64,000 bases of DNA from an uncultured Actinomycetes bacterium (GCA_963836345.1 CAWIJA010000007.1:43092-107091), one strand, 5' to 3'. Shown: positions 1,893 through 52,536, numbered from the stretch's first letter. Translations and numbers: made by a program. The notes: generated by a model from the sequence alone, not told the origin.

Positions 1893-2523
1893 CGAGCGTG
1901 TCCCAGAAGAGCAGCTCGTAGGCCTGGAGGAGACGCGCCGACCGGCGCACGCGGTCCGCCGGCTCGCCTGCCTCGAGCCCCTGCTCGGCTACCGCCAGCG
2001 CTCGGCGGCCGAAGTCCGGCGCCGGACTGGCGAAGAACTCGAAGAACGCCACGTCGTAGCGGCCGCCGAGGGCGCTGGCGATGCGCCTGCACGCGTCCCC
2101 CCATGCGTCGAGATTGACGAGGAACGCGAGCGCGACATCCGCCCGGCCGCCGTTCAGGGCGAGCCAGGCGACAAAGGCCGGATAGGCCTGACAACCGGGC
2201 TTCGGTTCGTACCCCTCTGCTCGCTCACCGACCGATGCTGCGAACCCGTCGAGCAGCGAGAGCGCCTTGCTCTCGCCTTCCGCGAGCTCCCGAAAGAAGG
2301 TGCCGCCGGGCGGTTCGGGGAAACGGGCGCCGAGGTGCTCGAAGCTGCGGCGGTCGCTCGCGATGATCGACGACTGTTCCACGCAGAACGCCTGCATGGC
2401 CGTACCGGCAATCCTGCCGTCCTCGACGGCGGCGATGAAGGGATGCTCCCGAACCCGCCGCTCCACCGCGTCGAGCTCCGGGCGCAGCCGATCGAGGAGC
2501 GCCCTGGCACGCGTCGGCTCCAT
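1879..2523 (-). CDS. TenA/PqqC-like haem-oxygenase-fold protein (second, divergent copy)
   Basis: Start moved to ATG 2523 (MEPTRARALLDRLRPELDAVERRVREHPFIAAVEDGRI...). The upstream part of track ORF 1879..2928 is Arg-rich junk. Overlaps the tenA start by 14 nt and lacks the TenA_C cysteine. Confidence 0.5.
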   Translation of the reverse strand: MEPTRARALLDRLRPELDAVERRVREHPFIAAVEDGRIAGTAMQAFCVEQSSIIASDRRSFEHLGARFPEPPGGTFFRELAEGESKALSLLDGFAASVGERAEGYEPKPGCQAYPAFVAWLALNGGRADVALAFLVNLDAWGDACRRIASALGGRYDVAFFEFFASPAPDFGRRALAVAEQGLEAGEPADRVRRSARLLQAYELLFWDTLDAAV

Positions 2524-2549
2524 CCCGCCGTTTCTAGCATGGAGCGAAC

Positions 2550-2984
2550 TCAGCGCGAGTAGCTGCCGACGAGCTTCGCGGTCTCGAGCACGTGCCCGTC
2601 GATCGCCTTGTCGAAGCTGAGGCGGCGATCGCTCGGCGCGAGGCCCGGCTCTGCGTCGAGCGCGTAGAGCGTGAAGACGTAGCGATGCGGCTTTCCCGGA
2701 GGTGGACATGGGCCGCGATAGCCGGGCGCACCGAAGTCGTTCCTGCCTTCCGCGGGCGCGGTCTCGCCCTCGGCGAGTCCGCCCGCCTCCGCCGGCAAGC
2801 CCCATGCGAGCCAGTGCGTGAACGGGTATCTCCCCGCGTCGGGGTCGTCGACGCACAGGGCCAGCGAGACCGCCCCGTCCGGCGGCGCCGTCCACTCGAG
2901 CGCCGGCGAGACGTCGTCGCCGTCGCACGAGTGGCGCTCCGGGATTCGCTCGCCGTCCCGGAACGCGCCGCTCTGCAGCTGCAC
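2550..2984 (-). CDS. YbhB/YbcL (PEBP, Raf-kinase-inhibitor-like) family protein
   Basis: GTG 2984 gives VQLQSGAFRDGERIPERHSCDGDDVSPALEW...DDPDA...FTHWLAWGL...GYRGPCPPPGKPHRYVFTLYALD. Confidence 0.8.
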   Translation of the reverse strand: MQLQSGAFRDGERIPERHSCDGDDVSPALEWTAPPDGAVSLALCVDDPDAGRYPFTHWLAWGLPAEAGGLAEGETAPAEGRNDFGAPGYRGPCPPPGKPHRYVFTLYALDAEPGLAPSDRRLSFDKAIDGHVLETAKLVGSYSR

Positions 2985-2985
2985 G

Positions 2986-3207
2986 CTAGGACGCTTCGCT
3001 CTCGCCGCCGTTGCCGCGCTTCTTGGCCTTGCGCCAGAAGAGCAGCGTCCCGGCGAGCGCCGCGATCCCGGCGGCGATCGCCGGCTTGTTCGGCTTCCCG
3101 CCCTCGACGGCCGGCACGGCACCCTTTGCCTTCTTCCGGGCCAGCCGCTTGCCGACGTTCCACGTCAGCCAGCCGAGCACTGCATTGCGCTTGTTCACGA
3201 TTCCCAT
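2986..3207 (-). CDS. small membrane protein (73 aa), unknown function
   Basis: ATG 3207 preceded by GGAAGGGGAG. Sequence MGIVNKRNAVLGWLTWNVGKRLARKKAKG...AIAAGIAALAGTLLFWRKAKKR has one hydrophobic segment. Its stop lies 1 nt before the PEBP start. Confidence 0.4.
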   Translation of the reverse strand: MGIVNKRNAVLGWLTWNVGKRLARKKAKGAVPAVEGGKPNKPAIAAGIAALAGTLLFWRKAKKRGNGGESEAS

Positions 3208-3221
3208 CGGTACTCCCCTTC

Positions 3222-4628
3222 CTATGCCTTGGCAGCCGCCCGTCGCCTCGGCGGCAGGTGAATCGGTCGCCCGAGCGCGACGAGGCCAGCCTCCTTGATC
3301 GCCTCCGACAGCGTCGGATGCGGAGCGATCCCGTCCGCAACCGTCTCGACCGTCGCCTCGGCGTCGAGGGCGACGACCCCGGCCTCGATCATGTCGGTCA
3401 CGTGCGGGCCGACCATGACGAGCCCGAGCAGCTCCCCGTACCGGGTCTCGTGGATCGACTTCACCCAGCCGACCGTCTCGTTCTGCATCACCGCCCGCGC
3501 GTTGGCGACCCACGGGAAGACGCCGACGGCGACGTCGTCGCCGTACTGCTCGCGTGCCTCCGCCTCGGTGAGCCCGACGGCGGCGACCTCGGGGTCGGTG
3601 TAGATCGGCCGGGGCACGCCGCGCGCGTCGACGACGGCGTCGTGGCCCATCGCGTTCTCGGCCGCGACCTCGCCCTCACGAAACGCCGTGTGCGCGAGCT
3701 GCCAGTAACCGGCACAGTCGCCCACCGCGTAGACGTGCGGAACCGTCGTGCGGCGATGCTCGTCGGCGGCGATTCCGGCGCGGCGATCGAACTGGACTCC
3801 GATCTCCTCCAGCCCGAGACCCTCGACGAGCGGCGCCCGACCGACCGAGACGAGCATCAGGTCGCACTCGACGGTCTCACCTTCCCCGTAGCGCACCGTC
3901 AGGGCGCCGTCCCGCTCCTCGACCTTCGTGCACTGCTTCTCCAGCTGGAGACCGATCCCGCGTTTCCCGAACTGCTTCGCGAGCTCCTTCGAGGCGTCCT
4001 CGTCCTCCATCGGGATCAGCCGCGGGAGCATCTCGACGATCGTCACCTCCGAGCCGAAGCGCCGGAAGATCGAGGCGAACTCGCAGCCGATGATGCCGCC
4101 CCCGAGGACGACGAGCCGGCGGGGCACCTGCTCCTGCGCGAGGAGCCCCGTGGAGTCGACGCAGAGCGACGAGTCGAGCCCCTCGATCGGCGGCCGCATC
4201 GGATAGGAGCCGGTGGCGACGATCGCCTGCTTGAAGGTCACGTCCTCCCCGCCCTCGACCGCGATCGTGTTCGCGTCCTTGAAGCGACCGGTTCCCTTCA
4301 CCCACTCGACCCCGTTCGCCTTGAAGAGTCCCGCGACGCCCTGGGTCATCTGCTTGACGACTGCCGCCTTCCACTCGTTTGCCGCGGCGAAGTCGAGCTG
4401 CGGCTCGCCGACCTTGACGCCGGCCTTCGCGAACGTCTCCGCTGCCTCCTTCAGGTAGGTCGCCGTCTGCACCCACGCCTTGGTCGGGATGCACCCGACC
4501 CGGAGGCACGTCCCTCCGAGCTCGGGCTCCTTCTCGATGCAAACCGCCTTCGCACCCAGCTGCGCGGCGCGGATCGCTGCGGTGTACCCCCCCGGACCGC
4601 CCCCGAGGACGGCGACGTCACAGTCCAT
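3222..4628 (-). CDS. lpdA: dihydrolipoyl dehydrogenase (E3)
   Basis: 468 aa: MDCDVAVLGGGPGGYTAAIRAAQLGAKAVCIEKEPELGGTCLRVGCIPTKAW (FAD motif plus redox CxxxxC) and a C-terminal HPTLSE dimerisation motif. Confidence 0.92.
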   Translation of the reverse strand: MDCDVAVLGGGPGGYTAAIRAAQLGAKAVCIEKEPELGGTCLRVGCIPTKAWVQTATYLKEAAETFAKAGVKVGEPQLDFAAANEWKAAVVKQMTQGVAGLFKANGVEWVKGTGRFKDANTIAVEGGEDVTFKQAIVATGSYPMRPPIEGLDSSLCVDSTGLLAQEQVPRRLVVLGGGIIGCEFASIFRRFGSEVTIVEMLPRLIPMEDEDASKELAKQFGKRGIGLQLEKQCTKVEERDGALTVRYGEGETVECDLMLVSVGRAPLVEGLGLEEIGVQFDRRAGIAADEHRRTTVPHVYAVGDCAGYWQLAHTAFREGEVAAENAMGHDAVVDARGVPRPIYTDPEVAAVGLTEAEAREQYGDDVAVGVFPWVANARAVMQNETVGWVKSIHETRYGELLGLVMVGPHVTDMIEAGVVALDAEATVETVADGIAPHPTLSEAIKEAGLVALGRPIHLPPRRRAAAKA

Positions 4629-4637
4629 TTCGCTCCT

Positions 4638-7600
4638 CTAGTTGCCTTCGGAGCCGATCCTAACGGGGGCGGGAAGGGCAACGTCGACCCGCTCCAGCCA
4701 CGGCGCCGCCTCGAGCCGCTCGAAGATCTCGCGCGACTCGCTCAGCAGCGGCTCGGCCTCCTCGGCGCGTCCCTGCCCGGCAAGCCATTCGCCGTGCTCG
4801 AGCTGGACGACGGCGAGGTCGAAGACGAGCTTGTGCTCCCGGAGAACGGCCTCGGCGGTCTTGAAGCCCTGCTCGACGGCGTCGTCCTCCCCGCGGAGTG
4901 CGGCGAGGCGGGCGCGAAACCGAACTGAATAGGCCCACAGGAACGGGGGACGCTTGCCCGGCGGGATGTCGTCGATCCGGTCGAGAAGCTCGTCGGCGAA
5001 GTCGAGACGACCCAATGCGAGAGCCGCCTCCAGGCCCTCGGCGAATGCGATCTTGATGTCGGGCCCCGAGCCCGAAGAGCTGGCTTGCGGCGAAGACGTC
5101 CTCACACGCAGCCAGAGCTTCCTCGAATCGGCCCTCGGCACGCAGCACGGCTGCACTCAGCGTCGCGTAGAGCGAGCGGTCCTGGACGTCGGCAGAGTCC
5201 TCGAAGCGGGCAATCAGTGAGAGGGCGCGGCGCGCCTCCGCAGTCTCTCCACGCGCGATCGGGATCTCGACGAGCGCGTTCATCATCGCGAGCGCCTGGA
5301 TCGCTTGATCCTCCGGCACCGAGGTCGCCAGCTCCAGCGACTCCGTCCATTGGCCGGTGCGCATCAAACACCAGCTCAGCTCGCCGAGCAGCCGCCATTC
5401 CATTAGCCGGTCTCCCGCCTTCCGAGCGAGAGCAAGGCCGCGGCGATGGAACTCGATCGCCTCGTCGTAGCGGTCACGACGGTCGAGCTGGTCGCCGAGG
5501 TTGTTGTAGGCACGCAGCGCGGCGAGGGTCAGGTCGTGCTCGAGCGCCAGCTCGAGCGCGTGCTTGACCAGCGCCAGCGACTGCTCCGAGCGACCGTTGA
5601 AGCTGGCGATCAGCCCCTGCGTGTTCAGCGCCTGCGAGAGAACCTCCGGCAACCACAAGGACTCCGCGATCTCGACAGCCGTCTCCACCCGGCGGGCTGC
5701 GAGCTCGACCTCGCCACGGAAGAAATGGAGCCGGCCCAGCTCCGCGGCGAGCACGGCGAGATCCTCGTCGGGCTCGTCGTCGGAAAGCACGGCAAATGCT
5801 CGTTCCATTCGCTCGAGCGCTTGCTCGAGGTGGCCGGCCCGCCATTCGACCTCACCGAGCCGGGCCGAAACACGCGCGGCCGGATGCGTCATGCCGGCCC
5901 CTTCGTAGAGCTCGAGGGCGCGCTCGAGGTGGCGCTGTGCCTGCTCGGCGCGCCCGGCAGACCATGCCGTCGCGCCAGCCCGCTCGCGCAACTTGGCCTC
6001 GTCGAGCGTGTCGTCGCTCAGCCCTGCCGCGCGCTCGAAGCAATGCTCCGCCTCCTCGTTCGCAGCCAGCGACGCCGCCCGCTCACCGGCGCGCGTGAGC
6101 ATCTCCTGCGCCCGCGCCTTGATTTCGGCGGCGTCGCCGCTTCGGGCGCCGCATCGAAGGCGTCGAGGTAGTGCGCGGCGATCGACCTCGACGATCTCTT
6201 GCTCGCCGGCGCCGAACGCTTCGACCAGATGCGCTGCTGCCGCAAGATGCCGCGCCTTGCGCTCCGCCTTAGCCAGTGTCTCGTAGGCAACCCGCTTGAG
6301 TAGGTCTTGAAGAAAGCTGTACTGGCCGCGCTCGGGCGAGCGAGGGTCGGCCTGAACCGAGAGGACTTCCTTACGAACAAGCGACGTCATGAGCGGTTCG
6401 AGCTCCGACTCCGTCAAGCCGGAGAGAGCCGCAAGACCAGTCTTCGTGAACGACTTGCCCAGCACCGAGGCGTCCTGGAGCAGCCGCCGTTCCTCGGCGA
6501 GGAGCCCGTCGAGGCGGGCGGCGACGAGCGCCTGCAGCGTCTCGGGCACGTCCAGCGCCTCGATCGGCCCCGTCGGCCGGTAGACGTCGCCCTCACGCGC
6601 GAGCAGGCCCCGATCGAGCAGCATCCGAACTGTCTCGACGGCGTAGAGCGGGACGCCTTCCGCCCGCGCGAGCATCTGTCCGCGCAGCCCGTCCGGCAGG
6701 CCCGGCACGAACCCGTCGAGCAGCTGCTCCATTGCCCGTGCGGAGAGCGGCTCGAGCGACAGTGTGGTCGCGTTGCGGCCGCCCGAGCCGAAGCCGGGAC
6801 GTCGCTCGGCCAACTCCGGCCGGGCGAGCGCGAGCACGAAGATCGGGTGGCTGCGCGACCATTCGAGCAGGTACTCGACGAAGTCGAGCAGTCCGGTGTC
6901 GGCCCACTGCAGGTCCTCGAAGACGAGCACCACCGGCCCTTCCTCCGCGAGGCGCTCGAAGAAGAGGCGCCACGCCGAGAAGAGATCCTCGCGGTCGGGA
7001 GCCGTCCGCTCGGCAAGCCCGAGCAGGTGGGCGAGGCGCGGCTCGAGCCAGCTCCGCTCCTCCGGGTCGGGTACGTGCTCCTCGATCGAGGCGCCGAGCT
7101 TCGCGAGCGCGGGCGCCGGCCCCTCCTCTTCGAGGATCCCGGCACGCATGCGCACCATCTCCGCGAGCGCCCAGTAGGCGACGCCGTCCCCGTAGGCGAG
7201 GCAGCGGCCGCGATGCCACCAGAAGTTGTCCGCGAGACCGTCGACGTACTTCTCGAACTCCCAGGCGATCCGCGACTTGCCGATGCCGGCGATCCCGACG
7301 ACGGAGACGAGCTGGGCCTTACCCTCCTCCGCGCTGGCGTGGAAAAGCTCCTTGACGAGACGGAGCTCGCGGTCGCGGCCGACGAAGGGAGGCTCGAGAC
7401 CGACGGACTTCTGGGCGCCACCCCGGGCCGCCGTGACGCGGAGCGCCCGATGGAGGACGATCGGCTCGGCCTTGCCTTTCAGATCCTGCTCGCCCGCCGA
7501 TTCGTAGGCGATCGCGGCTTCGGTCGCACGCCTCGTCGCCTCGCCGACGAGCACGGTCCCCGGATCGGCGGCCGCCTGGATCCGGGACGCCGTGTTGACC

Positions 7601-8145
7601 AGGTCGCCGGCGACCATTCCCTGGCCGGCCGCCCCCAGCGTGACCGCCGCCTCGCCTGTGAGCACACCTGCCCGCGCAGACAGATCCGAGTCGAGCTCGG
7701 GCACAGCTGCAACCAGATCGAGCGCCGTCCGTACCGCCCGCTCCGCGTCGTCCTCGTTCGCGATCGGCGCGCCCCAGACCGCCATCACGGCGTCGCCGAT
7801 GAACTTCTCGACCGTCCCGCCGTAGAGCGAGACCAGCCGCTGGCACGTCTCGAAGTAGCGGGAGAGCAACTCGCGCGTGTCCTCGGCATCGCGAGCCTCC
7901 GACGCTGACGTGAATCCGACCAGGTCGGCGAAGAGGACGGAGACGAGGCGGCGCTCGGCAGCGGGCGCGGCAGCTGCGAGTGGCTGCACGGGCCCCGTCT
8001 CGATCGCCGCGCCGCACTCGTCGCAGAACCTCGCCCCAGCAGGCACCGGGTGGCCGTTCGGACACACGTGCGCCAGCCCGGCGCCGCAGTTCAGGCAGAA
8101 CCTGGCCTCGGGTCGATTCTGGGAGCCGCAGCTCGGGCAGGTCAT
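4638..8145 (-). pseudogene. double zinc-ribbon / class III adenylate cyclase / AAA(STAND-like) NTPase / TPR protein, paralogue 1, reading frame interrupted
   Basis: ATG 8145 (MTCPSCGSQNRPEARFCLNCG...). Motifs FADLVGFT, KFIGDAVMAVWG, GDLVNTASRIQ and Walker A GIAGIGKS. The true C-terminus (DIKIAFAEGLEAALALG...REIFERLEAAPWLERV) is in another frame (track ORF 4638..5156), with the shift in the C4 run at 5064-5067. A second, compensated shift lies at 6138-6182. Confidence 0.7.
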
Positions 8146-11100
8146 GCGCTCACCTCGGCGCCGGTACGAACGTCCGCCGCGCGCTCGAGCCACGGCGTCG
8201 CCTCGAGGCGCTCGAAGATCTCGCGTGCCTCGACCAGGAGCGGCTCCGCTTCCAGGGCACGACCCTGCTCCGTGAGCCAGTCAGCATGCTCGAGCTGCGT
8301 CACCGCGAGGTAGAAGACCAGGGCAAGCTCCCGGAACAGTCCTGCCGCGCGCTTGAAGCGGCGGTCCGCGTCGGCAGAGTCACCCCGGCGGCCGGAGAGG
8401 TGCGCCCGGAAGCGCGAGACCTGCGCCTGGAAGAATTGAGAGGACGATCCTGGCGGCAGCGCCTCGACGGCGGACACCAGCTCCTCGACCTTGCCGAGGT
8501 CGTTCAGCTCGAGTGCGGCCTCGACCGCGGTCACGAACCCCTGCTTGCCGTACTCCTGGGTGGTTCCCATCGACTCGCGGCTTTCGAGGGCGAGCTCGGC
8601 GGCCTCGAGCGCCCGGGCGGCGTCTCCGGACATGAGCAGGAGGTTCGCGCGTCCGAGGTGGAACGAGTCTCGCTCCTGGACATCCGCGGACGACTCCATC
8701 GCGGCACACCGTTGAAGCAGGGTCTCGGCGTCGGCGGGATTTCCCCGGAACGAGCGCACCGTCGCCCCGAACGTGAGAATTCCGGGCCACGCCAGCCGGA
8801 TCTCCGTCCAGCGTTCCTCCGGAAGCTGGGCGATCATCGACTCGACCTCGTCCCAGGCGCCCAGCGAGAACAGCGGATACAGCTGGCCGAGGAACTGCCA
8901 CTCCCACCAGCGGGCACCGACGCGGCGTGCAAGGGCCAGGCCGTCGCGAACGGCCTTCGCCGCCTCTTCGTACCGGTCGACGTGGCAGAGCGTGTCTGCG
9001 AAGTTGTAGTAAGCGCGGAGCGCCGCAGACGGCTTCTCGTGCTCGAGCGCGAGGTCGCGGGCATACGGCAGCAGAGCCAGCGCCTCGTGGAGCCGCCCGC
9101 GCCCCGCGAGGATGATCGCTTTCGTGTTCAAGGCCTCCGACAGGATCTCGGGTGCGCCAAGGGCCTCGGCGAGCTCGAGCGCGGTCTCGACCCGCTCGAG
9201 CGCGAGCTGCGCCTCGCCGTGGAAGAAGAGGAACCGCCCCAGCTGCGCTGCGAGGGATGCGAGATCCTCGTCGGGCTCCTCCCGCGAGAGCACATCGAAC
9301 GCCTGCTTCATGTTCTCGATGCCCTGTTCGATCCGGCCTCTGTCGGTCCAGAGGATCTCGGCCAGCCGAGCGGAGACCCCGGCCGCCGGATGCGTGGCAC
9401 CCACCGCGTCGAAGAGCTCGATTGCCTGCTCGTAGTGGGCGGCCGCCTCATCCGCCCGCGCCCCGGTTCGCGCCATCGTCCCCGCCCGCTCGTGAAGCTC
9501 CGCCTGGACGAGCGCCTCGTCGGTGAGCTCCAGCGCGCGCTCGTAGGCGCGCTGGGCCTCGACGTTCGCGGCCAGCGACGCAGCGCGCTCGGCAGCGCGG
9601 ACGAGCATGCCCCGCGCAGTCGACCGGATCTCGTCGGCATCGGGATCGTCCGGCGCCGAGCGGTAGGCATCGAGATAGTGCGTGGCGACGACCTCGACGA
9701 TCTCGTCTTCCTCGGCGCTCCGCGTCGAGGACAGGAACTGCGCAGCGGCAAGGTGCTTCGCCTTCCGCTCCCGCTTCGACAGCGTCTCGTAGGCGACGTG
9801 CTTGACGATGTCCTGCAGGAACGAGTACTGGCCGCGCTCGGGCGACTGCGGGTCGGCCTGGATCGAGAGCACCTCCTTGCGGAGGAGCGAAGCGAGGAGC
9901 GGCTCGAGGTCTCCTTCGCCGAGTCCCGTGAGCGCACCCAGACCGTGCTTCGTGAACGTCTTCCCGAGCACCGATCCGTCCTGGACCAGTCGCCGCTCCT
10001 CCGGCGCCAACCCGTCGAGACGAGCGGCGACGAGCGCGTGGAGCGTCTCAGGAACCTCGAGCGTCTCGATCGCCCCGACCGGGCGAAAGACGTTTCCGTC
10101 CTGCACCAGCAGGCCGCGGTCGAGCAGCATGCGCACCGTCTCGACCGCGTACAGCGGCACCCCTTCGGCCCGATCGAGGATCTGCCTACGCAGGTCGTCC
10201 GGAAGCCCGGGCACGAGCCCGCTCAGCAGCTCCTCCATCGCCTGCGCGCGAGAGCGGCTCGAGATAGAGCGAGGTCACGGCACGCTTGCCGGCACCCCAG
10301 GTCGGATGCTTGTCGGCGAGCTCGGGACGGGCGAGCGTGAGCACGAAGATCGGGTGGCTCCGCGACCAGTCCAGCAGGAAGTCGAGGAAGTCGAGCAGGC
10401 CCGCATCCGCCCACTGCATGTCCTCGAACACGAGCACGACGGGGTCTCGCTCGGCCAGCCGCTCGAAGAGGATGCGCCAGGCCGAGAACAGGTTCTCCTG
10501 GTCGCCCGCAAGACCCTCCTCGAGCCCGAGCAGGTGGGCGAGGCGCGGCTCCACCCAGGCGCGCTCATCGGGGTCGGGCAGATGCTCGGCGAGTGCGACG
10601 TGGAGCTTCCCCAGAGCGGAGGGAGGCTCCTCGTCCTCGACGATCCCGCAGCGCATCCGCACCATCTCCGCCAGCGCCCAGTACGCGACCCCCTCGCCGT
10701 AGGAGAGGCACCTCCCCCGGTGCCACCAGGTCTCGCCGGCGAGCCCGTCGATGTACTTCTCGAACTCCCAGGACATCCGCGTCTTGCCGACGCCGGCGAT
10801 CCCGACCACCGAGACGAGCTGCGCCCTCCGCTCGTCGGCCGACGCGTGGAAGAGCTCCTTGACCATGCGCAGCTCGCGCTCGCGGCCCACGAACGGGGGC
10901 TCGAGGCCTGCCGAGCGGAGCACGCCGGCGCGTCCCGACATCACCCGCGACGCACGGAACAGCTGAACCGACTCGGCCTTGCCCTTGAGCTCGTGCTCGC
11001 CGGCAGGTTCGTAGGCGATCGCCGCCTCGGTCGCGCGCTTCGTCGCTTCGCCGACGAGCACGGTGCCCGGCTCCGCCTCAGCCTGGATCCGCGATGCCGT

Positions 11101-11646
11101 GTTGACGAGGTCGCCGGCGACCATGCCCTGGCCGTCCGCGCCGAGCGTTACAGCCGCCTCGCCCGTGAGGACTCCGGCTCGCGCCCGCAGGTCGGGGTCG
11201 AGCAAGGGAACCGTGGCGACGAGATCGAGAGCCGCCCGAACGGCTCGTTCCGCGTCGTCCTCGTTCGCCGCCGGAGCGCCCCACACGGCCATGACCGCGT
11301 CGCCGATGAACTTCTCGACCGTTCCGCCGTAGCGGTCGATCAGCTGCTTGCAGCGCTCGAAGTAGCCGGACAGGAGCTCCCTGACCTCCTCCGAGTCACG
11401 AGACTCCGACAGCGTCGTGAAGCCGACGAGATCGGCGAAGAGAACCGAGACGAGCCGGCGCTCCGAGATGGGAGCCACGGGCGGCGCATGGTTACCGCCG
11501 AGCTGCGCGCCGCACTCGCCGCAGAACTTCTGCCCGGGGGCGTTCTGGGTGCCACATGCAGAGCAGCGAAGAGAGAGCACGGCGCCGCACTCGCCGCAGA
11601 ACTTCTGCCCGGGCGGGTTCTGCTTCCCGCACGCGGGGCAGTTCAT
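8142..11646 (-). pseudogene. double zinc-ribbon / class III adenylate cyclase / AAA NTPase / TPR protein, paralogue 2, split by a 1-nt indel
   Basis: N-terminal part is track ORF 10186..11688, with the real ATG at 11646 (MNCPACGKQNPPGQKFCGECG...). C-terminal part is ORF 8142..10238. The junction ...SLYLEPLSRA / AMEELLSGLVPGLP aligns with the intact paralogue only after a frame change at about 10239-10250. The stop overlaps the paralogue 1 start (ATGA). Confidence 0.7.
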
Positions 11647-14600
11647 GCCAGAACCTCCGCCCCGATTCGCGCTACCCGTTCGAGCCACGGCGTCGCCTCG
11701 AGCCGCTCGAAGATCTCGCGTGCCTCAGCGAGCGGACGCTCTGCCGCCGGGCCGCCACCCAGAGCCTCGACGTGCTCGAGCAGGGTGACGGCGAGCCAGA
11801 ACGGAACGGCGAGCGCGCGGAAACGAGCCGCCGCAGCCGCCAGACCCGGCGCGTCGCCGGCAAGACGCGCGCGGAGGCGGAGAGCGTGGATCTCCAGGTA
11901 GGGCGGCCGCACCCCAGGCGTGAGGCCGTCGACGAAGGCCAGGAGCTCGTCGGCCCTCGCCGTGTCTCCGAGCGCGAGCGCAGCCTCGAGGGCATCGACG
12001 ACGCCGTGCTTGACCCCCTGGAAGGCAGGACCGAGGATCGCCGCGGTCTCGATCGTGGCCGCGCCGGCCTCGAGCGCCTCCTCGAGACGACCCTCGGCCC
12101 GCCGGAGCGCCGCCGTCACCGCCAGATGGGTGCTCCGGTCCTGGACGTCCGTGGAAGCCTCGAGCCGCGCGAACCGAGAGAAGAGCTGGCGGGCGTCGTC
12201 CAGCTCTCCCCGCTGGCAATGGATCTCGACCCCGGCCTGAAGGAGGCTGAGGACGACGCCCCCGGAGTTGAACTGCTCCTCGGTGAACTCGTTCTGGGTG
12301 GCGAGGACCTCGTCCCAGCGCCCGAGCATCAGCAGCGGGTAGCAGCGCTCCGCGAGCGTCGCCCACTCGTAGCGCCGGTTGCCGGTCCGGCGGTCGAACG
12401 TGAGCCCTTCGTCGAGATAGCCGAGGGCGTCCGCGTACCGGTCGAGCCGGAAACAACGGTCGGAGAGGATGAAGTAGCAGGTGCTGACATCCTCGGCGAG
12501 GTCGTGCTCCAGCGCGACCTCGAGCGAGTGCTTGAGCAGCGCGAAGGCCTCTTCGGAGCGGCGCCTGCTCGCGAGCACCGCCGACTTCGCCCGCAGGCCG
12601 ACCGATAGCGGCTTCGGCAGCCCCTGGGCCTCCGCGATCTCGAGCGCGAGCTCCGCACGTTCGGTTGCGCGCTCCAGGTCGCCGCTGAACCAGTACGTGC
12701 GCGACAGCTGCGCCGCGAGCAGCGCGAGATCCTCGTCCGGCTCATCCGTCGCGATCACGTCGAAGGCCCGCTCCATGCGTTCGAGCGCCTCGTCGCGGTG
12801 CGCCGTGAAGCTGAGCACATTCGCGAACCGGCCTGAGATGCGCGCGGCTGCATGCGTGTCGCCCTCGGCCTCGTAGATCGAGATCGAGCGCTCGAGCAGT
12901 TGGCGAGTCGCCTCCGGGTTTGCGGCCCGGCCGGCCATCTCACCCGCCCGTCCGAGCAGCTCCGCCTGCTCGAGCGGCTCGGCGGAAAGCTCTGCGCTCT
13001 GCTCGAAGTAGCGTTGCGCCTCCTCGGCCGCGCCGAGGGACGCGGCACGCTCGGCGGCACGCGTGAGCGCCGCACGCGCCTTCCCTTTGATCTCAGACCC
13101 GTCCGCGGCATCGGGATCAGCCTCGTAAGCGTCGAGGTAGTGGGACGCGACGACCTCGACGACCTCGTGCTCCCCCCACGCCTCCTGGAGATGAGAGGCG
13201 GCGGCGAGGTGCTTGACCTTTCGGTCGCGCTTCGCGAGCGTCTCGTACGCGACGCGACGAAGGAGATCCTGGAGGAACCCGTATTGACCGTGCTCGGGCG
13301 AGCGGGGGTCTGCCTGGACGCCGAAGAATTCCTTGCGCGTGAGCGAGACCAGGATCGGATCGAGCTCTTCCTCGGAGTGACCCGAGACCGCGGCGAGCGA
13401 CTGCTTCGTGAACGTCTTGCCGAGAACGGCGCCGTCCTGCAGAACGCGCCGCTCTTCCGGCGTCAAGCCGTCGAGGCGGGCGGCGATCAACGCGTGCAGC
13501 GTCTCCGGAACCTCGAGGGCCTCGACCGTGCCGGTCGGATGGTAGACCGCTCCCTCCTGCACCAGCGCACCTCGGTCGAGGAGCATGCGGACGGTCTCGA
13601 CGGCGTAGAGCGGGATACCCTCCGCGCGATCGAGAATCTGGCGGCGGAGCGCCTCCGGCAGTCCCGGGACGAGACCCCCGAGCAGCTCCTCCATCGCAGG
13701 TTCCGCCAGCGGTTCGAGATAGATGGACGTGAAATTCCTGCTCGAAGCTCCCCAGGTGGGCCGCCGTTCCTGGAGCTCGGGCCGCGCGAGGGTGACCACG
13801 AACAACGGCGAGCTCCGCGACCACTCGAGCAGGTAGTCGATGAAGTCGAGCAGCGAGGCATCCGCCCACTGCATGTCCTCGAACACCATCACCGTCGGGT
13901 ACACGTCGGCGAGACGCTCGAAGAACAGGCGCCAGGCGGCGAACAGGTCGTCTCGCTCGAAACGCGTGCTCTCCTCGAGACCGAGCAGATGGCGTAGCCG
14001 TGGCTCGACGAAGCCGCGCTCCTCCTCGTCCGTCACGTGCTGCTCGACGATTTCGGCGATCTTGGCGAGGGCCGAGGCGGGCTCCTCGTCCTCGGCGATC
14101 CTGGCTCGCATCCGCACCATGTCCGCCAGCGCCCAGTACGTGACGCCGTCGCCGTACGAGAGGCAACGGCCTCGGTGCCAGTACGTGATCTGGGCGATGC
14201 CGTCGAAGTACTTGTAGAACTCCCATGCCAGCCGCGACTTGCCGATGCCCGCGATCCCCATGATCGAGACCAGCTGCGGCTTCCGGTCGTCCGAGCACGC
14301 ATGGAAGAGGTCCTTGATGCGGCGAAGCTCGCCGTCACGGCCCACGAACGGTGCTTCGAGGCCTGTCGACTTCAATGCACCCCGCGCGCCCGAGACCACG
14401 CGCAGCGCTCGCCAGAGCGGAACCAGGCCGACCTTTCCCTTCAGCTCGTGCGAGCCCGCGTCGGCGTAGACGATCGTCTTGTCGGTGGCGCGCTTCGTCG
14501 CCTCGCCGACGAGCACCGAGCCGGGCTCTGCCAGGGACTGGATTCGGGAGGCCGTGTTGACCAGATCGCCGGCGACCATGCCTTGCCCTTCCGCGCCGAG

Positions 14601-15119
14601 CGTCACCGCAGCCTCGCCCGTGAGGACGCCGGCCCGGGCACGAAGCTCGGGAGCGCCGACTCCGTCTCCGAGGGCGGCGATCGCCGCGACGAGATCGAGC
14701 GCGGCTCGGACGGCGCGCTCGGAGTCGTCCTCCGTCGCAACCGGAGTTCCCCAGACCGCCATCACCGCGTCCCCGATGAACTTCTCGACCGTCCCGCCGT
14801 AGAGCTCGATCAGCCGACGGCACGTGTCGAAATAGCGGGTGAGGAGCTCGCGCGTGTCCTCGGCATCCTGGGTCTCGGACAGGCTGGTGAACCCGACCAG
14901 ATCGGCGAACAACACCGAGACAAGCTTTCGTTCTGCCGCCGGAGGCGGCGGCGCAGGTTCCGTCTCGCTCTCGAGAGGCGATCCGCACTCGCCACAGAAC
15001 TTGACGCCGGTCGTGTTCGGAGAGCCACAAGCCGGGCAGACGAGCGCGAGCGAGCCGCCGCATTCGCCGCAGTACTTCCGACTGTCGTCGTTGTCCGTTC
15101 CACACGCGGGGCAGCGCAT
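11643..15119 (-). CDS. double zinc-ribbon / class III adenylate cyclase / AAA NTPase / TPR protein, paralogue 3 (intact, 1158 aa)
   Basis: MRCPACGTDNDDSRKYCGECG...CPACGSPNTTGVKFCGECG; FADLVGFT, KFIGDAVMAVWG, GDLVNTASRIQ; Walker A GIAGIGKS; long TPR-like helical region; tail REIFERLEATPWLERV. The stop overlaps the paralogue 2 start (ATGA). Confidence 0.85.
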   Translation of the reverse strand: MRCPACGTDNDDSRKYCGECGGSLALVCPACGSPNTTGVKFCGECGSPLESETEPAPPPPAAERKLVSVLFADLVGFTSLSETQDAEDTRELLTRYFDTCRRLIELYGGTVEKFIGDAVMAVWGTPVATEDDSERAVRAALDLVAAIAALGDGVGAPELRARAGVLTGEAAVTLGAEGQGMVAGDLVNTASRIQSLAEPGSVLVGEATKRATDKTIVYADAGSHELKGKVGLVPLWRALRVVSGARGALKSTGLEAPFVGRDGELRRIKDLFHACSDDRKPQLVSIMGIAGIGKSRLAWEFYKYFDGIAQITYWHRGRCLSYGDGVTYWALADMVRMRARIAEDEEPASALAKIAEIVEQHVTDEEERGFVEPRLRHLLGLEESTRFERDDLFAAWRLFFERLADVYPTVMVFEDMQWADASLLDFIDYLLEWSRSSPLFVVTLARPELQERRPTWGASSRNFTSIYLEPLAEPAMEELLGGLVPGLPEALRRQILDRAEGIPLYAVETVRMLLDRGALVQEGAVYHPTGTVEALEVPETLHALIAARLDGLTPEERRVLQDGAVLGKTFTKQSLAAVSGHSEEELDPILVSLTRKEFFGVQADPRSPEHGQYGFLQDLLRRVAYETLAKRDRKVKHLAAASHLQEAWGEHEVVEVVASHYLDAYEADPDAADGSEIKGKARAALTRAAERAASLGAAEEAQRYFEQSAELSAEPLEQAELLGRAGEMAGRAANPEATRQLLERSISIYEAEGDTHAAARISGRFANVLSFTAHRDEALERMERAFDVIATDEPDEDLALLAAQLSRTYWFSGDLERATERAELALEIAEAQGLPKPLSVGLRAKSAVLASRRRSEEAFALLKHSLEVALEHDLAEDVSTCYFILSDRCFRLDRYADALGYLDEGLTFDRRTGNRRYEWATLAERCYPLLMLGRWDEVLATQNEFTEEQFNSGGVVLSLLQAGVEIHCQRGELDDARQLFSRFARLEASTDVQDRSTHLAVTAALRRAEGRLEEALEAGAATIETAAILGPAFQGVKHGVVDALEAALALGDTARADELLAFVDGLTPGVRPPYLEIHALRLRARLAGDAPGLAAAAARFRALAVPFWLAVTLLEHVEALGGGPAAERPLAEAREIFERLEATPWLERVARIGAEVLA

Positions 15120-15150
15120 CGGACCCGAAAGCGTAGAACCTGACGGAGAA

Positions 15151-15606
15151 CTAATAAAGCTCGGCGCGCATTACCCAGGCGCCGGCGCGGTCGCCGACCT
15201 TGGTGAAGCCATGCTTCTCGTACAGGTGGATCGCCGGATTGTCCGGCTCGACGCTGAGGCTGACGCGCCGGTATCCCTCCGCCCGGGCCTGGTCGAGCAG
15301 CTCGCCGAGCATCTCCTCGCCGAGGCCCTTCCCCCGCCGGCTCGGCACGACGGCGATCGTCAGCTCGGGCGTCTCCTCGTCCACGAACCCGTAGCCGGGC
15401 TCGTCCTGCGGGAAGGTCCGGTACCAGGCGGCGCCGACGGGCTGGAATTCGTCGATCGCGACCACCGCCGTGTCCCCGGGCCGGCCCCACCCGGCGACGT
15501 ACCGCTCGAGCGGCACGTCGGCTTCGTTCCCCCAGCGGGCGTAGTACGCGTGCCGAAGCATGTCCCGGAGAAAAGGCAGATCCTGGGCGCCCGCGCGGCG
15601 GATCAC
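15151..15606 (-). CDS. GNAT family N-acetyltransferase
   Basis: Start placed at GTG 15606 (GAGGG 8 nt upstream), which avoids overlap with the VOC gene. Contains the acetyl-CoA motif VVPSRRGKGLGEEML and LYEKHGF. Confidence 0.75.
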   Translation of the reverse strand: MIRRAGAQDLPFLRDMLRHAYYARWGNEADVPLERYVAGWGRPGDTAVVAIDEFQPVGAAWYRTFPQDEPGYGFVDEETPELTIAVVPSRRGKGLGEEMLGELLDQARAEGYRRVSLSVEPDNPAIHLYEKHGFTKVGDRAGAWVMRAELY

Positions 15607-15619
15607 ATCGGCACCCTCG

Positions 15620-15943
15620 CTAGATCTCCTCGGTGAGCTGGATCCGGTTTCCATCCGGATCGAACACGTCCAGGATCCGCACTTCCCCGTGCAGCTCGAC
15701 GATCACGCCGACCTCGATCCCCGCTGCGCGCAGCCGGTCGGCCTCCGCGCGCACGTCGGGCACGTTGATCGACGCGACACCTCCCTCGTCGCCGCTCGAC
15801 TCCCAGAGCGCAATCTCCATGTCCTCGCGTCGGAGCCGAATCCACCGGCCCTCGTCGTCGGAGAACGTCTCCTCGAAGCCGAGGACGCCCGTGTAGAACG
15901 CACGCGCGGCATCGAGGTCGCGGACGCGGTACCAGACGTTCAC
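15620..15943 (-). CDS. VOC/glyoxalase family protein
   Basis: 107 aa: MNVWYRVRDLDAARAFYTGVLGFEE...VFDPDGNRIQL. 4-nt overlap with the E2 stop. Confidence 0.75.
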   Translation of the reverse strand: MNVWYRVRDLDAARAFYTGVLGFEETFSDDEGRWIRLRREDMEIALWESSGDEGGVASINVPDVRAEADRLRAAGIEVGVIVELHGEVRILDVFDPDGNRIQLTEEI

Positions 15944-17142
15944 AAGCTGAGGCCGGGCTCCTCGAGCGACTGCTTCACGGTCTCCAGGAAGGCCGCCGCC
16001 GGCGCACCGTCGACCGCGCGATGGTCGAACGTCCCGACGAGCGTCGCCATCGGCCGCACCGCGACCTCGCCCTCGACCGGCACGACGCGGTCCTCGATCG
16101 CGCCGACGGCGAGGATCGCCGCCTGGGGCGGGTTGAGCACGGCGGTGAAGCGCTCGACGCTGTACATGCCGAGATTCGAGATCGTGAAGGTCCCGTCTTC
16201 CAGGTCTTCCTGACGCAGCTTCGCATCGCGAGCGCGCGTGACCACGTCCGCGCGGGCGGCGGCGATCTCGGCCAGCCGGAGCCGCTCCGCACCGCGGATC
16301 ACGGGAACGACCAGCCCCTGCGGTGCGGCGACCGCGATCCCGACGTTCGCCGTCGGGTAGCGGAGAATCGCGTCGTCCACGTACCGCGCGTTCACCTCGG
16401 CGTGCCTGATGAGGGCCGTGGCGCAGACCTTCGTCAGGACGTCTGTGACGGTGACGCGGACGTCCGGATCGCGCTCGCGCAGCCGCGAGACCAGCTCGTT
16501 CACCCGCGACATGTCGACGGAGACCTGGAGCTGGAAGACCGGTATCTGCCAGGCGTCCGCGAGCCGGCGGGCGATCGTCCGGCGGATGCTGGTCAGCTCG
16601 ACCCGCTCCACCTCGCCGGGCGGCGGCGCAAGAGCCGGTGCGGCAGGCGGCGGGGAAACGGCCGCGCGCTCGACGTCCTCGGCGACGATCCGCCCCTCGG
16701 GCCCCGTCCCGGCGAGCGCCGCGAGATCGATCCCCCGCTCGCGGGCGATACGCCGGGCAAGGGGAGAAGCCTTCACACGGCCGCCGTTCGTCTGCACAGA
16801 GCTGACGGCCCGCTGACTCGGTTGCGCTGGCCGGGACTCCTCCATCTGCTCAGGAGCAACTTCCCTCTCCCCGTCCGAGGCGGCGGCCTCGGACGGAATC
16901 TCCTCACCAGGCGCCCCGATCACCGCCACCGTCCTGCCGACCGGGACCTCGCCTTCCGAGATGACGATCCTCAGGAGCACGCCGGCGACGTCGGCCTCCA
17001 CCTCCTGTGTCACCTTGTCCGTGTCGAGCTCGTAGAGCGGCTCGCCCTTGTCGACCTGCTCCCCCTCGGACTTCAGCCAGCGGACGATCGTGCCCGACTC
17101 CATCCCCTGGCCGAGCCGCGGCAGGATCACCGCGCTAGCCAC
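15940..17142 (-). CDS. dihydrolipoamide acyltransferase (E2) of a 2-oxoacid dehydrogenase complex
   Basis: Lipoyl domain (LYELDTDKVTQEVEA), subunit-binding domain (ASPLARRIARERGIDL) and catalytic domain (FDHRAVDGAPAAAFL). Confidence 0.9.
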   Translation of the reverse strand: MASAVILPRLGQGMESGTIVRWLKSEGEQVDKGEPLYELDTDKVTQEVEADVAGVLLRIVISEGEVPVGRTVAVIGAPGEEIPSEAAASDGEREVAPEQMEESRPAQPSQRAVSSVQTNGGRVKASPLARRIARERGIDLAALAGTGPEGRIVAEDVERAAVSPPPAAPALAPPPGEVERVELTSIRRTIARRLADAWQIPVFQLQVSVDMSRVNELVSRLRERDPDVRVTVTDVLTKVCATALIRHAEVNARYVDDAILRYPTANVGIAVAAPQGLVVPVIRGAERLRLAEIAAARADVVTRARDAKLRQEDLEDGTFTISNLGMYSVERFTAVLNPPQAAILAVGAIEDRVVPVEGEVAVRPMATLVGTFDHRAVDGAPAAAFLETVKQSLEEPGLSL

Positions 17143-18115
17143 GGCCGACCGTCCTTTGAATCGCCTCGAGCACGTCGGCCTTGTGCGGGACGACGAAGTT
17201 CTCCATCACGGGAGCGAACGGCACAGGTGCGAACTTGGCGCCGACCCGCTCGATCGGGGCGTCGAGCCAGTCGAACGCCTGGTACTGGATCACGGCCGCA
17301 ACCTCGGCCCCGAAACCGGCGCGGACGACCGCCTCGTGCGCGACGACGCAGCGGTTCGTCTTCTTCACAGAGTCGACCAGCGCCTGCTCGTCGAGCGGCT
17401 GCAGCGTCCGAGGGTCGACGACCTCGACCGAGATGCCCTCCTGCTCGGCGTCGACGGCCGCCGCCAGTGCCTCGTGGACGAGACGGCCAGTCGCGATCAC
17501 GGTCACGTCGTCGCCTTCGCGGTGCACACGCGCCTGCCCGAGCGGGATCGGCTCCAGCTCCTCGGAGACCTCCTCCTTGATCGGGTACAGCGTCCGGTGC
17601 TCGAAGAACATCACCGTGTTGTCGTCGTAGATCGACGACCAGAGCAGGCCCCTGACATCGCTGGGCGTCGAGGCGAAGACGACCTTCAGGCCCGGCACGT
17701 GGACGAACCACGCCTCCAGCTGCTGCGCGTGCTGCGCGCCCGGCGACCAGCCGGCACCGCCCTGCGTTCGCACCGTCAGCGGGACCTTCAGCTGCCCGCC
17801 CGACATGTACCGGTGCTTCGCCGCCTGGTTGACGATCTGCTCCATCGCCAGCGTGGTGAAGTCCTCGTACATGATCTCGACGACGGGGCGCATCCCCTGC
17901 ATCGCCGCGCCGATCCCGGCGCCGACGATCGCCATCTCCGAGATCGGCGTGTTCCGGACCCGCTCCGGTCCGAACTCGGCGAGCATCCCCTGCGTGACCC
18001 CCATCGACCCGCCCATCTCGGCGATGTCCTCGCCCATGATGAAGACGTCGTCGTCTGCCCGCATCGCCCGGGACAGGGCGTCGCGGACGGCTTCTCTGTA
18101 GGTCAGCTCGGCCAC
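17135..18115 (-). CDS. 2-oxoacid (pyruvate/branched-chain/acetoin type) dehydrogenase E1 beta subunit
   Basis: 326 aa: FIMGEDIAEMGGSMGVTQGMLAEFGPERVRNTPISEMAIVGAGIGAAMQGMRPVVEIM. GTG start overlaps the E1alpha stop (TAGTG). Confidence 0.9.
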   Translation of the reverse strand: MAELTYREAVRDALSRAMRADDDVFIMGEDIAEMGGSMGVTQGMLAEFGPERVRNTPISEMAIVGAGIGAAMQGMRPVVEIMYEDFTTLAMEQIVNQAAKHRYMSGGQLKVPLTVRTQGGAGWSPGAQHAQQLEAWFVHVPGLKVVFASTPSDVRGLLWSSIYDDNTVMFFEHRTLYPIKEEVSEELEPIPLGQARVHREGDDVTVIATGRLVHEALAAAVDAEQEGISVEVVDPRTLQPLDEQALVDSVKKTNRCVVAHEAVVRAGFGAEVAAVIQYQAFDWLDAPIERVGAKFAPVPFAPVMENFVVPHKADVLEAIQRTVGRG

Positions 18116-19089
18116 TACGCGTACACGTTCTTGAGAGCGTCTTCGGGCTTCGGATCGGTGCCGGACTTGGCGAAGGCCACCGACGCGTCCGCGATCTCGC
18201 GCGCCTCCTGGTCGAGCGCGTCGAACTCGTCGTCCGAGAGGCCCAGGCGCTCGCGCAGCTTCACGATCGGATCCTGCGTCTCGCGGAGCTCCTGCTGCTC
18301 ACCCTTCGGCCGGTAGACCTGAGGGTCGCCGACGTAGTGGCCGACGAGACGGTAGGTCTCACAGACCAGGAAGACGGGGCCCTTTCCGCTCCGGGCATAG
18401 TCGAGAGCGCGCTTCGCGGCCCGATGGACGGCCTCGACGTCCTGCCCGTCGACCTTGGCCGAGTGCATTCCGAACGCGACGGCGCGCTTCTCCAAGTCTT
18501 GAATCGGCAGCTGGTGCGTCGCCGGAGTCGACTCCGCGTAGTGGTTGTTCTCGAGCACGTACACGGCGGGCACCTTCCAGAGCTGCGCGAGGTTCAGCGA
18601 CTCGTGGAACGTGCCGATGTTCGTCGCCCCGTCGCCGAAGAACGCGACCGCCACGCGAGGCTCGCTACGCAGCTTGAACGCCAGAGCGGCTCCCGTGATC
18701 GCGGGTAGCCCGCCGCCCACGACAGCGTTCGCCCCGAGGTTCCCGCGCTCGACGTCGTACAGGTGCATCGAGCCCCCGTAGCCGTGGGAGCACCCCTCGA
18801 GCTTTCCGTACAGCTCCGCCATCACCTCGTTGGGGTGGGTTCCGCGCGCGAGCGTATGGCCGTGCGCGCGGTGGGTGGACGCGAACACGTCGCCGTCCTC
18901 CATCGCGTGGCAGACGCCGACGGCGACCGCCTCCTGGCCGATCGCGACGTGCAGGAAGCCGGGCAGCTCGCCGGCGCGGAAGCGCTCCTCGACCTTCTCT
19001 TCGAAGTGCCGGATCAGCAGCATCTCCCGCAGGAACTCGCGCAGCCGCTCCTGCGAGAGCGTCCCCCGCTTGCTCTCGACCTTTGCCAC
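18115..19089 (-). CDS. 2-oxoacid dehydrogenase E1 alpha subunit (TPP-dependent)
   Basis: Start trimmed to GTG 19089 (VAKVESKRGTLSQERLREFLREMLLIRHFEEK...). TPP motif GDGATNIGTFHESLNLAQLWKVPAVYVLENN. The upstream 105 aa of the track ORF look non-coding. Confidence 0.85.
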   Translation of the reverse strand: MAKVESKRGTLSQERLREFLREMLLIRHFEEKVEERFRAGELPGFLHVAIGQEAVAVGVCHAMEDGDVFASTHRAHGHTLARGTHPNEVMAELYGKLEGCSHGYGGSMHLYDVERGNLGANAVVGGGLPAITGAALAFKLRSEPRVAVAFFGDGATNIGTFHESLNLAQLWKVPAVYVLENNHYAESTPATHQLPIQDLEKRAVAFGMHSAKVDGQDVEAVHRAAKRALDYARSGKGPVFLVCETYRLVGHYVGDPQVYRPKGEQQELRETQDPIVKLRERLGLSDDEFDALDQEAREIADASVAFAKSGTDPKPEDALKNVYA

Positions 19090-36946: not shown

Positions 36947-36988
36947 CGCTCGCGGAGCTTACGCATTACAACAGGCATTTGCTACGCA

Positions 36989-39900: not shown

Positions 39901-40111
39901 CGCATTCTGTTTCCCGATTGCCGCAGAGTCACTCCAGGGGGTGATCTCGGATCCCTCGACCGGATGATTTCCGGAGCCCCGAATCGGAAGCATCGTGATC
40001 GTTCACGCAACCTAAGCCGTCGAAATCTCTCGAAAGCTGCCGTTGAAGCCGCGCGGCGAGCGAGTCGATGGACACCCGAGTGACAGCGAATGCCGTTGTG
40101 GGGAGGCCGAG

Positions 40112-52375: not shown

Positions 52376-52536
52376 ACGAGCCGTGATGACGAGGCGCCTG
52401 GGGTGGATACTCCCCTTCGCGCCCTAGACGTTACGGCACTCGTCGATCGACAGATCGCGTGCTTGAACAGTGGTTTTCCGCAGGCGCATTCCGCGCCGAG
52501 CCGTGCGTTACGAGAACTCGAGCCGGGCTGTCGAGT

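Follow-up and report, generated by a model that had tools for sequence, protein, structure and literature searches.

The closest described relatives of the genes treated here are the mycobacterial cyclase-ATPase-TPR-LuxR proteins Rv0386, Rv1358 and Rv2488c (PMC3466318; TPR, tetratricopeptide repeat). Rv0386 is also reported, where PMC3466318 cites Castro et al. 2005, to depart from the canonical Lys-Asp substrate pair. The domain order of these Mycobacterium tuberculosis proteins, namely an N-terminal class III cyclase, an AAA_16/STAND NTPase and a helical/TPR region, recurs in three tandem genes, CYC1, CYC2 and CYC3, in a stretch of 64,000 nucleotides (the window) from an uncultured Actinomycetes bacterium (GCA_963836345.1 CAWIJA010000007.1:43092-107091), which is a Gaiellaceae-type member of the Thermoleophilia. 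They occupy 10.5 kb just before lpd, the E3 gene of a pyruvate dehydrogenase (PDH)-type cluster, and would be three paralogues of ancient divergence (lineages A, C and B), arranged head to tail. Comparison with related genomes suggests that the array fills a cargo slot of the cluster, and the second base-specifying residue of its cyclase domains is a conserved Met. Literature searches returned no description of the arrangement or of a Gaiellales cyclase.

Domain architecture and the base-specifying position

A Pfam search recovered DZR/Zn-ribbon, Guanylate_cyc, AAA_16 and TPR domains in all three paralogues, which confirms the zinc-ribbon/cyclase/NTPase/TPR organisation proposed in an initial annotation made from the sequence alone. 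The PF00211 scores were 71.7, 75.8 and 67.2 bits (cut-off 21.9), the AAA_16 scores lay between 74 and 80 bits (cut-off 32.6), and TPR_12 and TPR_MalT matched the C-terminal part. Two CxxC...CxxC ribbons had been assigned to every copy, which stands except for CYC3, whose second ribbon is degenerate (CPNGH...CDEC). When the profile of the NTPase-TPR part was compared with the PDB, the MalT regulatory domain (1hz4), the PH0952 sensor (6mfv), AfsR (8k60) and LGN-type TPRs were matched via the TPR region.

The conservation of catalytic residues was assessed in a 63-sequence family alignment and against the structures of Cya2 (2w01), CyaB (3r5g) and CyaC (1wc0). The metal-binding residues D73 (FADLVGFT, 61 of 63) and D117 (KFIGD, 63 of 63) coincide in the alignments with the metal Asp residues of CyaB and CyaC, the substrate Lys K113 is kept in all 63 relatives, and the transition-state pair N188/R192 (NxxxR) is invariant (63/63), so that the metal Asp, Lys and Asn/Arg residues recognised at first sight are indeed retained. 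In the NTPase, Walker A K294 is invariant, the FED motif is nearly so (E414 in 63/63, D415 in 62/63), and the full motifs, Walker A GIAGIGKS and Walker B FEDxQWAD, are conserved. Judged by its residues, the N-terminal domain is predicted to be an active-type class III cyclase, for which ATP specificity is not to be assumed.

The second base-specifying position of class III cyclases lies seven residues before the catalytic Asn, as in Rv1625c (D365/N372), CyaC (T1139/N1146) and mammalian C2 (D1018/N1025). In CYC1 this position is taken by Met181, which falls opposite Thr1139 in CyaC and opposite the corresponding Thr in CyaB; 61 of the 63 relatives have Met there. The Asp of GDLVN, D185, had been read as the ATP-specificity residue; that reading fails, as D185 aligns to a non-conserved position. 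The pair is therefore Lys-Met rather than the Lys and Asp (or Thr) of a canonical adenylyl cyclase, and because the specificity position holds Met instead of Asp or Thr, the identity of the nucleotide is uncertain and the product cannot be called cyclic AMP (cAMP). By analogy with STAND proteins, binding of a ligand or partner by the TPR region would release the NTPase switch; the protein would then oligomerise, and the N-terminal cyclase domains would pair up as in the dimeric class III active site, whereupon the cyclic nucleotide would be made.

The family is very large, with at least 8000 matches of the same Pfam architecture at E<1e-30 in a protein search, annotated in their sources as 'class 3 adenylate cyclase/TPR repeat protein' or 'adenylate/guanylate cyclase domain-containing protein'. 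A set of 79 further cyclase-anchored loci, up to 71% identical to CYC1, was gathered from Gaiellales, Solirubrobacterales, Chloroflexota and Dormibacterota, and none of them (0/79) had PDH genes within 6 kb. Away from PDH, two to four copies stand head to tail in L083, L091, L106, L117 and L118, and clustering of the flanking open reading frames (ORFs) of 40 family loci gave no recurrent neighbour gene. Tandem arrays coupled by ATGA stop/start overlaps appear to be a property of the family wherever it is located. The genes in the window are further members of this known family, in a context that is unusual yet explained.

The GNAT-lpd junction of the dehydrogenase cluster

The ORF table and translations place E1 alpha, E1 beta, E2, VOC, GNAT, CYC1-3 and lpd in an unbroken run on the minus strand (Table 1), and the gene order and positions first described were borne out. 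The ATGA overlaps between the copies and the 9-nucleotide (nt) spacer before lpd, likewise described at the outset, were read in the sequence. The gap between GNAT and CYC1 is 31 nt, and none from E1 alpha to lpd is longer. Terminator-like hairpins are no commoner than chance (6 observed, 5.0 +/- 2.0 expected), in keeping with the initial annotation, which had seen no internal terminator. No sigma-70-like promoter was found in a scan, although this consensus says little for an actinobacterium of 70% GC, and Rfam and tRNA scans of the window were empty. As the genes are co-directional with short or overlapping junctions, read-through transcription of the array from the operon is probable, given also the absence of a hairpin excess.

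The co-directional E1 alpha, E1 beta, E2 and E3 genes are predicted to form a cluster of the pyruvate/2-oxoacid dehydrogenase type, in which the best models of E1 alpha and E2 are PDH models that score below their cut-offs. The gene that opens the cluster in 80 Gaiellales loci matches E1 alpha at 72-92% identity, and in the gene calls of L184 E2 comprises lipoyl, E3-binding and catalytic domains. No further Pfam domain was detected in the GNAT protein, including no cyclic nucleotide monophosphate (cNMP)-binding domain.

Table 1. Position of the dehydrogenase genes, cyclase paralogues, junctions and indels in the window (aa, amino acids)
Feature	Position	Strand	Basis or remark
E1 alpha, PDH-type 2-oxoacid dehydrogenase	18115..19089	-	324 aa, GTG start; NCBIfam TIGR03182 PDH_E1_alph_y 347 bits, below cut-off of 394
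E1 beta	17135..18115	-	NCBIfam NF006667 378 bits, above cut-off of 321
E2 dihydrolipoamide acyltransferase	15940..17142	-	Top NCBIfam model TIGR01349 PDH acetyltransferase, 325 bits, below cut-off
VOC/glyoxalase-fold protein, 107 aa	15620..15943	-	Pfam Glyoxalase 4.5e-13
Small GNAT acetyltransferase, 167 aa	15151..15654	-	Pfam Acetyltransf_1 7e-18
CYC1 (lineage A), intact, 1158 aa, DZR/class III cyclase/STAND (AAA_16)/TPR	11643..15119	-	Single ORF, Pfam
CYC1 double zinc ribbon, residues 1-50	14970..15119	-	Pfam DZR 2e-10, Zn_Ribbon_1 twice
CYC1 class III cyclase domain, residues 62-236	14412..14936	-	PF00211 71.7 bits, PDB alignments, conservation in 63 relatives
CYC1 STAND NTPase core (AAA_16), residues 257-442	13794..14351	-	Pfam AAA_16 2.6e-20; Walker A GIAGIGKS, Walker B VFEDMQWAD
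CYC1 helical/TPR sensor region with conserved tail REIFERLEATPWLER	11646..13052	-	Pfam TPR_12
ATGA stop/start overlap CYC1/CYC2	11643..11646	-	Read in the sequence; same overlap in L184 and L185
CYC2 (lineage C), full-length homologue, frame-broken	8142..11646	-	ORFs, tblastn, Pfam
Extra G (+1) breaking CYC2	10249..10249	-	blastn against same-species L185 and L186
ATGA stop/start overlap CYC2/CYC3	8142..8145	-	Read in the sequence
CYC3 (lineage B), full-length homologue with three single-base indels	4638..8145	-	ORFs, tblastn, same-species contigs
Compensating pair in CYC3, +A at 6182 and -A at 6135	6135..6182	-	17 residues out of frame, then restored
Extra C in CYC3	5074..5074	-	Last ~140 residues shifted; open frame runs to 4660 rather than 4638
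Spacer from CYC3 stop to lpd ATG, 9 nt, AGGAGCGAA	4629..4637	-	Contains AGGAG, Shine-Dalgarno-like; reads TAG-AGGAGCGAA-ATG
lpd, dihydrolipoyl dehydrogenase (E3), 468 aa	3222..4628	-	NCBIfam TIGR01350 509 bits, cut-off 408.8

Synteny was compared at E2-anchored loci of 80 species representatives; these all belong to the Gaiellaceae, the Gaiellales or related Thermoleophilia, and their E2 identity does not exceed 72%. The standard layout of the clade is E1 alpha-E1 beta-E2-VOC-GNAT-lpd. Whether E2 and lpd adjoin in relatives was a question posed by the initial annotation; VOC (73 of 80 loci) and GNAT (70 of 80) usually intervene, and E2-VOC-GNAT-lpd is found without insert in 47/80, in which the GNAT-lpd junction is contiguous. 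The junction holds one to three cyclase-STAND genes in 9/80 loci and other inserts of 2-7 kb in 10/80, and it cannot be scored in 14/80. Membership of this lpd in a different complex had been considered at the outset; it was found instead to end the same cluster in the 47 species, and by gene order it is the cognate E3, placed last in the cluster throughout the clade. The association of VOC and GNAT with the Gaiellales PDH-type cluster is itself conserved, without an obvious role in a 2-oxoacid dehydrogenase complex.

The cargo at the junction varies. One cyclase copy is present in L024, L035 and L036, at least one in L038 (cut by a contig end), two in L031, L039 and L042, three in L028, and fragments in L055; a GGDEF-EAL gene accompanies the cyclase in L024 and a BBE-type FAD oxidase in L042. 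Every cyclase gene in the slot lies on the operon strand with short spacers. Other loci carry a Lon protease (L043, L050, L056), a serine recombinase (L020), a MerR regulator (L027), a PEP-mutase-like protein (L064), or an opposite-strand SARP regulator together with a PD40 protein (L008). In L008 the opposite-strand gene parts lpd from E1/E2, so read-through does not occur there and lpd can be expressed independently. On this comparative record the GNAT-lpd junction is best described as a cargo slot that behaves as an insertion hot spot. The co-directional embedding of the cyclase genes between E2-VOC-GNAT and lpd, with tight or overlapping junctions, was thus correctly described from the window; the arrangement is unusual as claimed, yet it is conserved in the lineage and dynamic.

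According to the preferred explanation, the array sits in this permissive slot, always co-directional and with short or overlapping junctions, and would be transcribed by operon read-through, with ATGA coupling between the copies, while lpd keeps its own ribosome-binding site. The cyclase array is rather likely to be a tolerated passenger at a well-expressed insertion site, linked to the dehydrogenase by position and not by a dedicated regulatory circuit.

The initial annotation had suggested cAMP signalling wired to the dehydrogenase. In such a scheme the cyclase-STAND proteins would sense a dehydrogenase-linked state (pyruvate, acetyl-CoA, NADH or lipoyl), the cyclic nucleotide would feed back, and the position would be functional. 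Reuse of the slot in several Gaiellales lineages, co-oriented and tight, the ATGA coupling and the 9-nt junction to lpd are what such wiring would produce, and the A-C-B order is stable within the species, as judged from the same-species contigs L183, L185 and L186, which come from two other Joint Genome Institute (JGI) samples and were reached by homology searches. Mycobacteria possess cAMP-dependent protein acetylation, which the GNAT beside the array recalls. The GNAT protein, however, lacks a cNMP-binding domain, and its gene belonged to the cluster before the cyclases did; nor did the window genes checked include a cNMP receptor gene. The cluster of most relatives contains no cyclase, the 47 without any insert including the close relative L034 (E1 alpha 88% identical), the slot elsewhere holds unrelated cargo, and equally close family members lie in many non-PDH contexts, the 79 loci above, without a common neighbour. 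With Met at the specificity position, and with two of the three window copies frame-broken and to that extent dispensable, dedicated wiring is considered unlikely.

Some points nevertheless weigh against the array being a mere passenger. Cyclase arrays occupy the slot in at least 9 species representatives, and in several metagenome contigs as well, without exception in the orientation of the operon; pure chance insertion would not readily predict this. A selective benefit of the position is conceivable, via expression level or co-regulation with carbon flux. The four indels behind the frame breaks could moreover be artefacts of assembly or polishing among paralogous sequence and not real mutations, as weighed in the following section.

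Age, turnover and reading frames of the copies

The three copies share only 57-61% amino acid and 64-68% nt identity with one another, and gene-conversion tracts were not found, as no 150-nt window exceeded 83% identity and the longest identical run was 33 nt. Recent duplication and gene conversion are ruled out by these values. Each copy has closer orthologues elsewhere: P0002 (87%) and the L036 copy (79%) for CYC1, P0122 (85%) and the L160, L162 and L165 copies (83-84%) for CYC2, and P0242 (82%) and the second copy of L031 (81%) for CYC3. Local amplification, the other origin put forward in the initial annotation, is therefore not supported, the copies being old lineages whose orthologues elsewhere are 79-87% identical. 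Neighbour-joining trees separated no fewer than three old lineages (A, C and B), interspersed with copies from non-PDH loci. Exact-sequence look-ups of the window CYC1, lpd and CYC3 tail gave no match on record, and the best relatives in a metagenome scan with the CYC2 tail were 85% identical.

The order of the copies is A-C-B in the window and its species, C-A-... in L165, L162 and L160, A-B in L031, B-A in L039 and C-B in L042. In L184, a 172-aa ORF directly before lpd (10801-11319) fuses CYC2-like residues 28-81 to CYC3-like residues 1035-1168, and this chimera is the trace left by a deletion that removed about 6 kb from two tandem paralogues. The array appears to evolve by birth and death, with copy numbers from 0 to 3, changes of order and deletion relics.

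The count of three paralogues of about 1160 aa, given at the outset, holds for the homologous stretches and for the species but not for the window, where only CYC1 is an open frame; the disruption of the other two had gone unmentioned in the initial annotation. CYC2 is split into ORFs at 10186-11688 and 8142-10238, which encode 486+14 aa of the N-terminal and 698 aa of the C-terminal part, and tblastn with CYC1 located a frame change near 10241-10249 in CYC2 and near 5057 in CYC3. The three same-species contigs reproduce the order GNAT-CYC1-CYC2-CYC3-lpd, with nt identities to the window of 98.5% without gaps (L183), 98.8% with three gaps (L185) and 97.9% (L186). CYC1 is 99% identical to P0001 on L183, CYC2 is intact on L185 and L186 (P0121, 1167 aa), and CYC3 is intact on L186 (P0241, 1168 aa). 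The single-base changes +G at 10249, +A at 6182, -A at 6135 and +C at 5074 are the sole frame-changing coding differences from these sister contigs. Synonymous and nonsynonymous codon differences numbered 44 and 17 in CYC1, 33 and 5 in CYC2, and 25 and 2 in CYC3; as the substitutions in CYC2 and CYC3 are mostly synonymous, both were under purifying selection until very recently. Two of the three window copies would thus have gained frame-disrupting single-base indels only very recently.

The frames of other genes in the window were checked by a codon-usage log-odds scan together with Pfam, since a plain GC3 frame plot was too noisy, with antisense frames sharing the third position. Full-length domain matches were obtained for dnaE, pheS, pheT, thrS, infC-rpmI-rplT, the SpoU methylase, the BrkB-like and GGDEF-REC-HD-GYP proteins, the PDH genes and lpd. 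The sole exception among the genes checked was an ORF at 51593-52423 (minus strand), in which a match to the TerC membrane protein (positions 1-76 of 178) runs directly into one to the universal stress protein Usp (positions 71-141 of 141); it looks like a chimera of the two, made by fusion or deletion. At the other places in the window where a frame break had been suspected, complete and separate genes were found instead (infC-rpmI-rplT, AraC/VOC/DUF1801, CSD genes and TenA-like genes).

About 7 kb holds four indels, compared with roughly none over about 48 kb of coding sequence elsewhere in the window, and none of the sites lies in a long homopolymer. This density, the non-homopolymer context and the frame-restoring pair argue that the indels are real, very young mutations. 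It is possible, though the less favoured of the two accounts, that all three copies are intact in the organism and that the indels are consensus or polishing errors of the assembly among paralogous sequence: two independent same-species contigs have none of the four and encode full-length proteins, the substitution patterns give no sign of relaxed constraint, and long-read metagenome-assembled genomes (MAGs) of the clade carry split essential genes. Errors of this kind would, however, have to spare CYC1, GNAT and lpd, which are unbroken, and the paralogues, at the identity given above, are too dissimilar for read mis-mapping. The +1/-1 pair in CYC3, 47 nt apart, also resembles selected compensation, not random error.

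The long-read MAGs in question are L041, L055, L063 and L065, with a split E1 beta, GNAT or lpd. Their frameshifts are probably sequencing errors and call for caution with pseudogene calls in the clade. Seven further family proteins (P0126, P0130, P0165, P0168, P0208, P0210 and P0234), of 690-765 aa, consist of the TPR half only, share 64-77% identity with the CYC2 C-terminal ORF, and in some cases come from contigs of more than 100 kb. Other genomes may therefore also contain split or frame-broken copies, unless these are common long-read artefacts.

The turnover of the copies also invites comparison with conflict systems, since the NTP-dependent conflict systems described in multicellular bacteria include cNMP cyclases that generate the signal (PMC7159879). 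The proteins would then be NLR-like sensors whose TPR region recognises molecules of an invader or competitor, the cyclase acting as effector or second-messenger generator, and the turnover would reflect an arms race. An N-terminal enzyme, a STAND NTPase and a C-terminal repeat sensor make up an Avs/NLR-type architecture; the family is very large, with tandem arrays, order changes, deletion relics and frame-broken copies; the C-terminal TPR third is the most divergent part of the paralogues (43-65% nt identity, against 65-83%); and the cyclase domain has weak PycC matches. PADLOC, on the other hand, gave no STAND/Avs model match and nothing outside the cyclase domain, no cNMP-activated effector gene lies nearby and no partner recurs, and the neighbours are housekeeping genes instead of a defence island. 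Within the species selection is strongly purifying and not diversifying, and the array has no flanking mobile-element hallmarks. A conflict role is an attractive analogy, to which architecture and turnover alone lend positive support, and it is regarded as improbable.

A broader conjecture, held to be about as doubtful, would make the Met-type family a large NLR-like receptor repertoire of soil Thermoleophilia, Chloroflexota and Dormibacterota that produces a non-canonical nucleotide, with the lpd-side copies kept because read-through ties their dosage or signalling to carbon flux. If true, the sensor array would be functionally coupled to the dehydrogenase, and its position would not be the neutral insertion that is preferred here.

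Several other observations were made in and around the window. Between lpd and dnaE (1272-3201) lie a PEBP gene and two TenA/THI-4-like genes; sister contig L186 (7626-9652) instead carries a 408-aa opposite-strand gene and a PEBP only about 84% identical, a strain-level replacement beside the cluster. Two large proteins built from divergent InlB B-repeat (Flg_new_2) domains at 34427-38839 (minus strand) have a native codon-usage signal far below that of their neighbours and may be recently acquired surface proteins. An 836-aa protein with GGDEF, receiver and HD-GYP domains (40016-42523, plus strand) is encoded by a cyclic-nucleotide signalling gene unlinked to the cyclase array.

Significance and likeness to known systems

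A central-metabolism cluster in an abundant uncultured soil lineage appears to hold a tolerated cargo slot just before its E3 gene, which cautions that function is not to be read from operon position alone. The array also offers a clear small-scale example of birth and death, with order changes, a chimeric deletion relic and seemingly very young frame disruptions, one of them compensated. Current understanding of cyclases and of PDH is left unchanged. Most worth attention are the slot in the PDH cluster and the Met at the specificity position, conserved in a very large, uncharacterised subfamily of class III cyclases.

Among known systems, the mycobacterial proteins are the nearest in architecture. 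The specificity pair of Rv0386 is Gln-Asn, whereas that of the window proteins is Lys-Met. In contrast to Rv0386, Rv1358 and Rv2488c, the window proteins lack a C-terminal LuxR-type helix-turn-helix and possess an N-terminal double zinc ribbon, and their genes form a tandem array inside a PDH-type cluster. The cyclase, NTPase and TPR parts are also homologous to TIGR03903, the 'TOMM system kinase/cyclase fusion protein' (residues 81-832 against model positions 302-1049, E 4.7e-63); the score of 213.5 bits is well under the cut-off of 705.75, the N-terminal Ser/Thr kinase is absent, and no thiazole/oxazole-modified microcin (TOMM) biosynthesis genes lie nearby.

The catalytic fold is common to Cya2, CyaB, CyaC and Rv1625c, with which the metal Asp pair, the Lys and the Asn/Arg all align. 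The window proteins differ from the solved cyclases in a two-residue deletion before the second specificity position and in the Met found there, where canonical adenylyl cyclases have Asp, CyaB and CyaC have Thr, and a Gly is aligned in 2w01. With the STAND regulators MalT, AfsR and PH0952 they share an AAA_16 NTPase with Walker A and B motifs followed by MalT-like TPR repeats; the output is a nucleotide cyclase instead of a DNA-binding domain, and the PDB matches cover the TPR part only.

The likeness to defence systems is more distant. In PADLOC the cyclase domain matched Pycsar PycC weakly (best 6.5e-16), and unlike in Pycsar no cNMP-binding effector gene is adjacent, the neighbours being GNAT and lpd. 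The antiviral Avs proteins have a similar layout of effector, STAND module and repeat sensor, from which the window proteins are set apart by the PADLOC result and by a context of housekeeping genes in place of a defence island.

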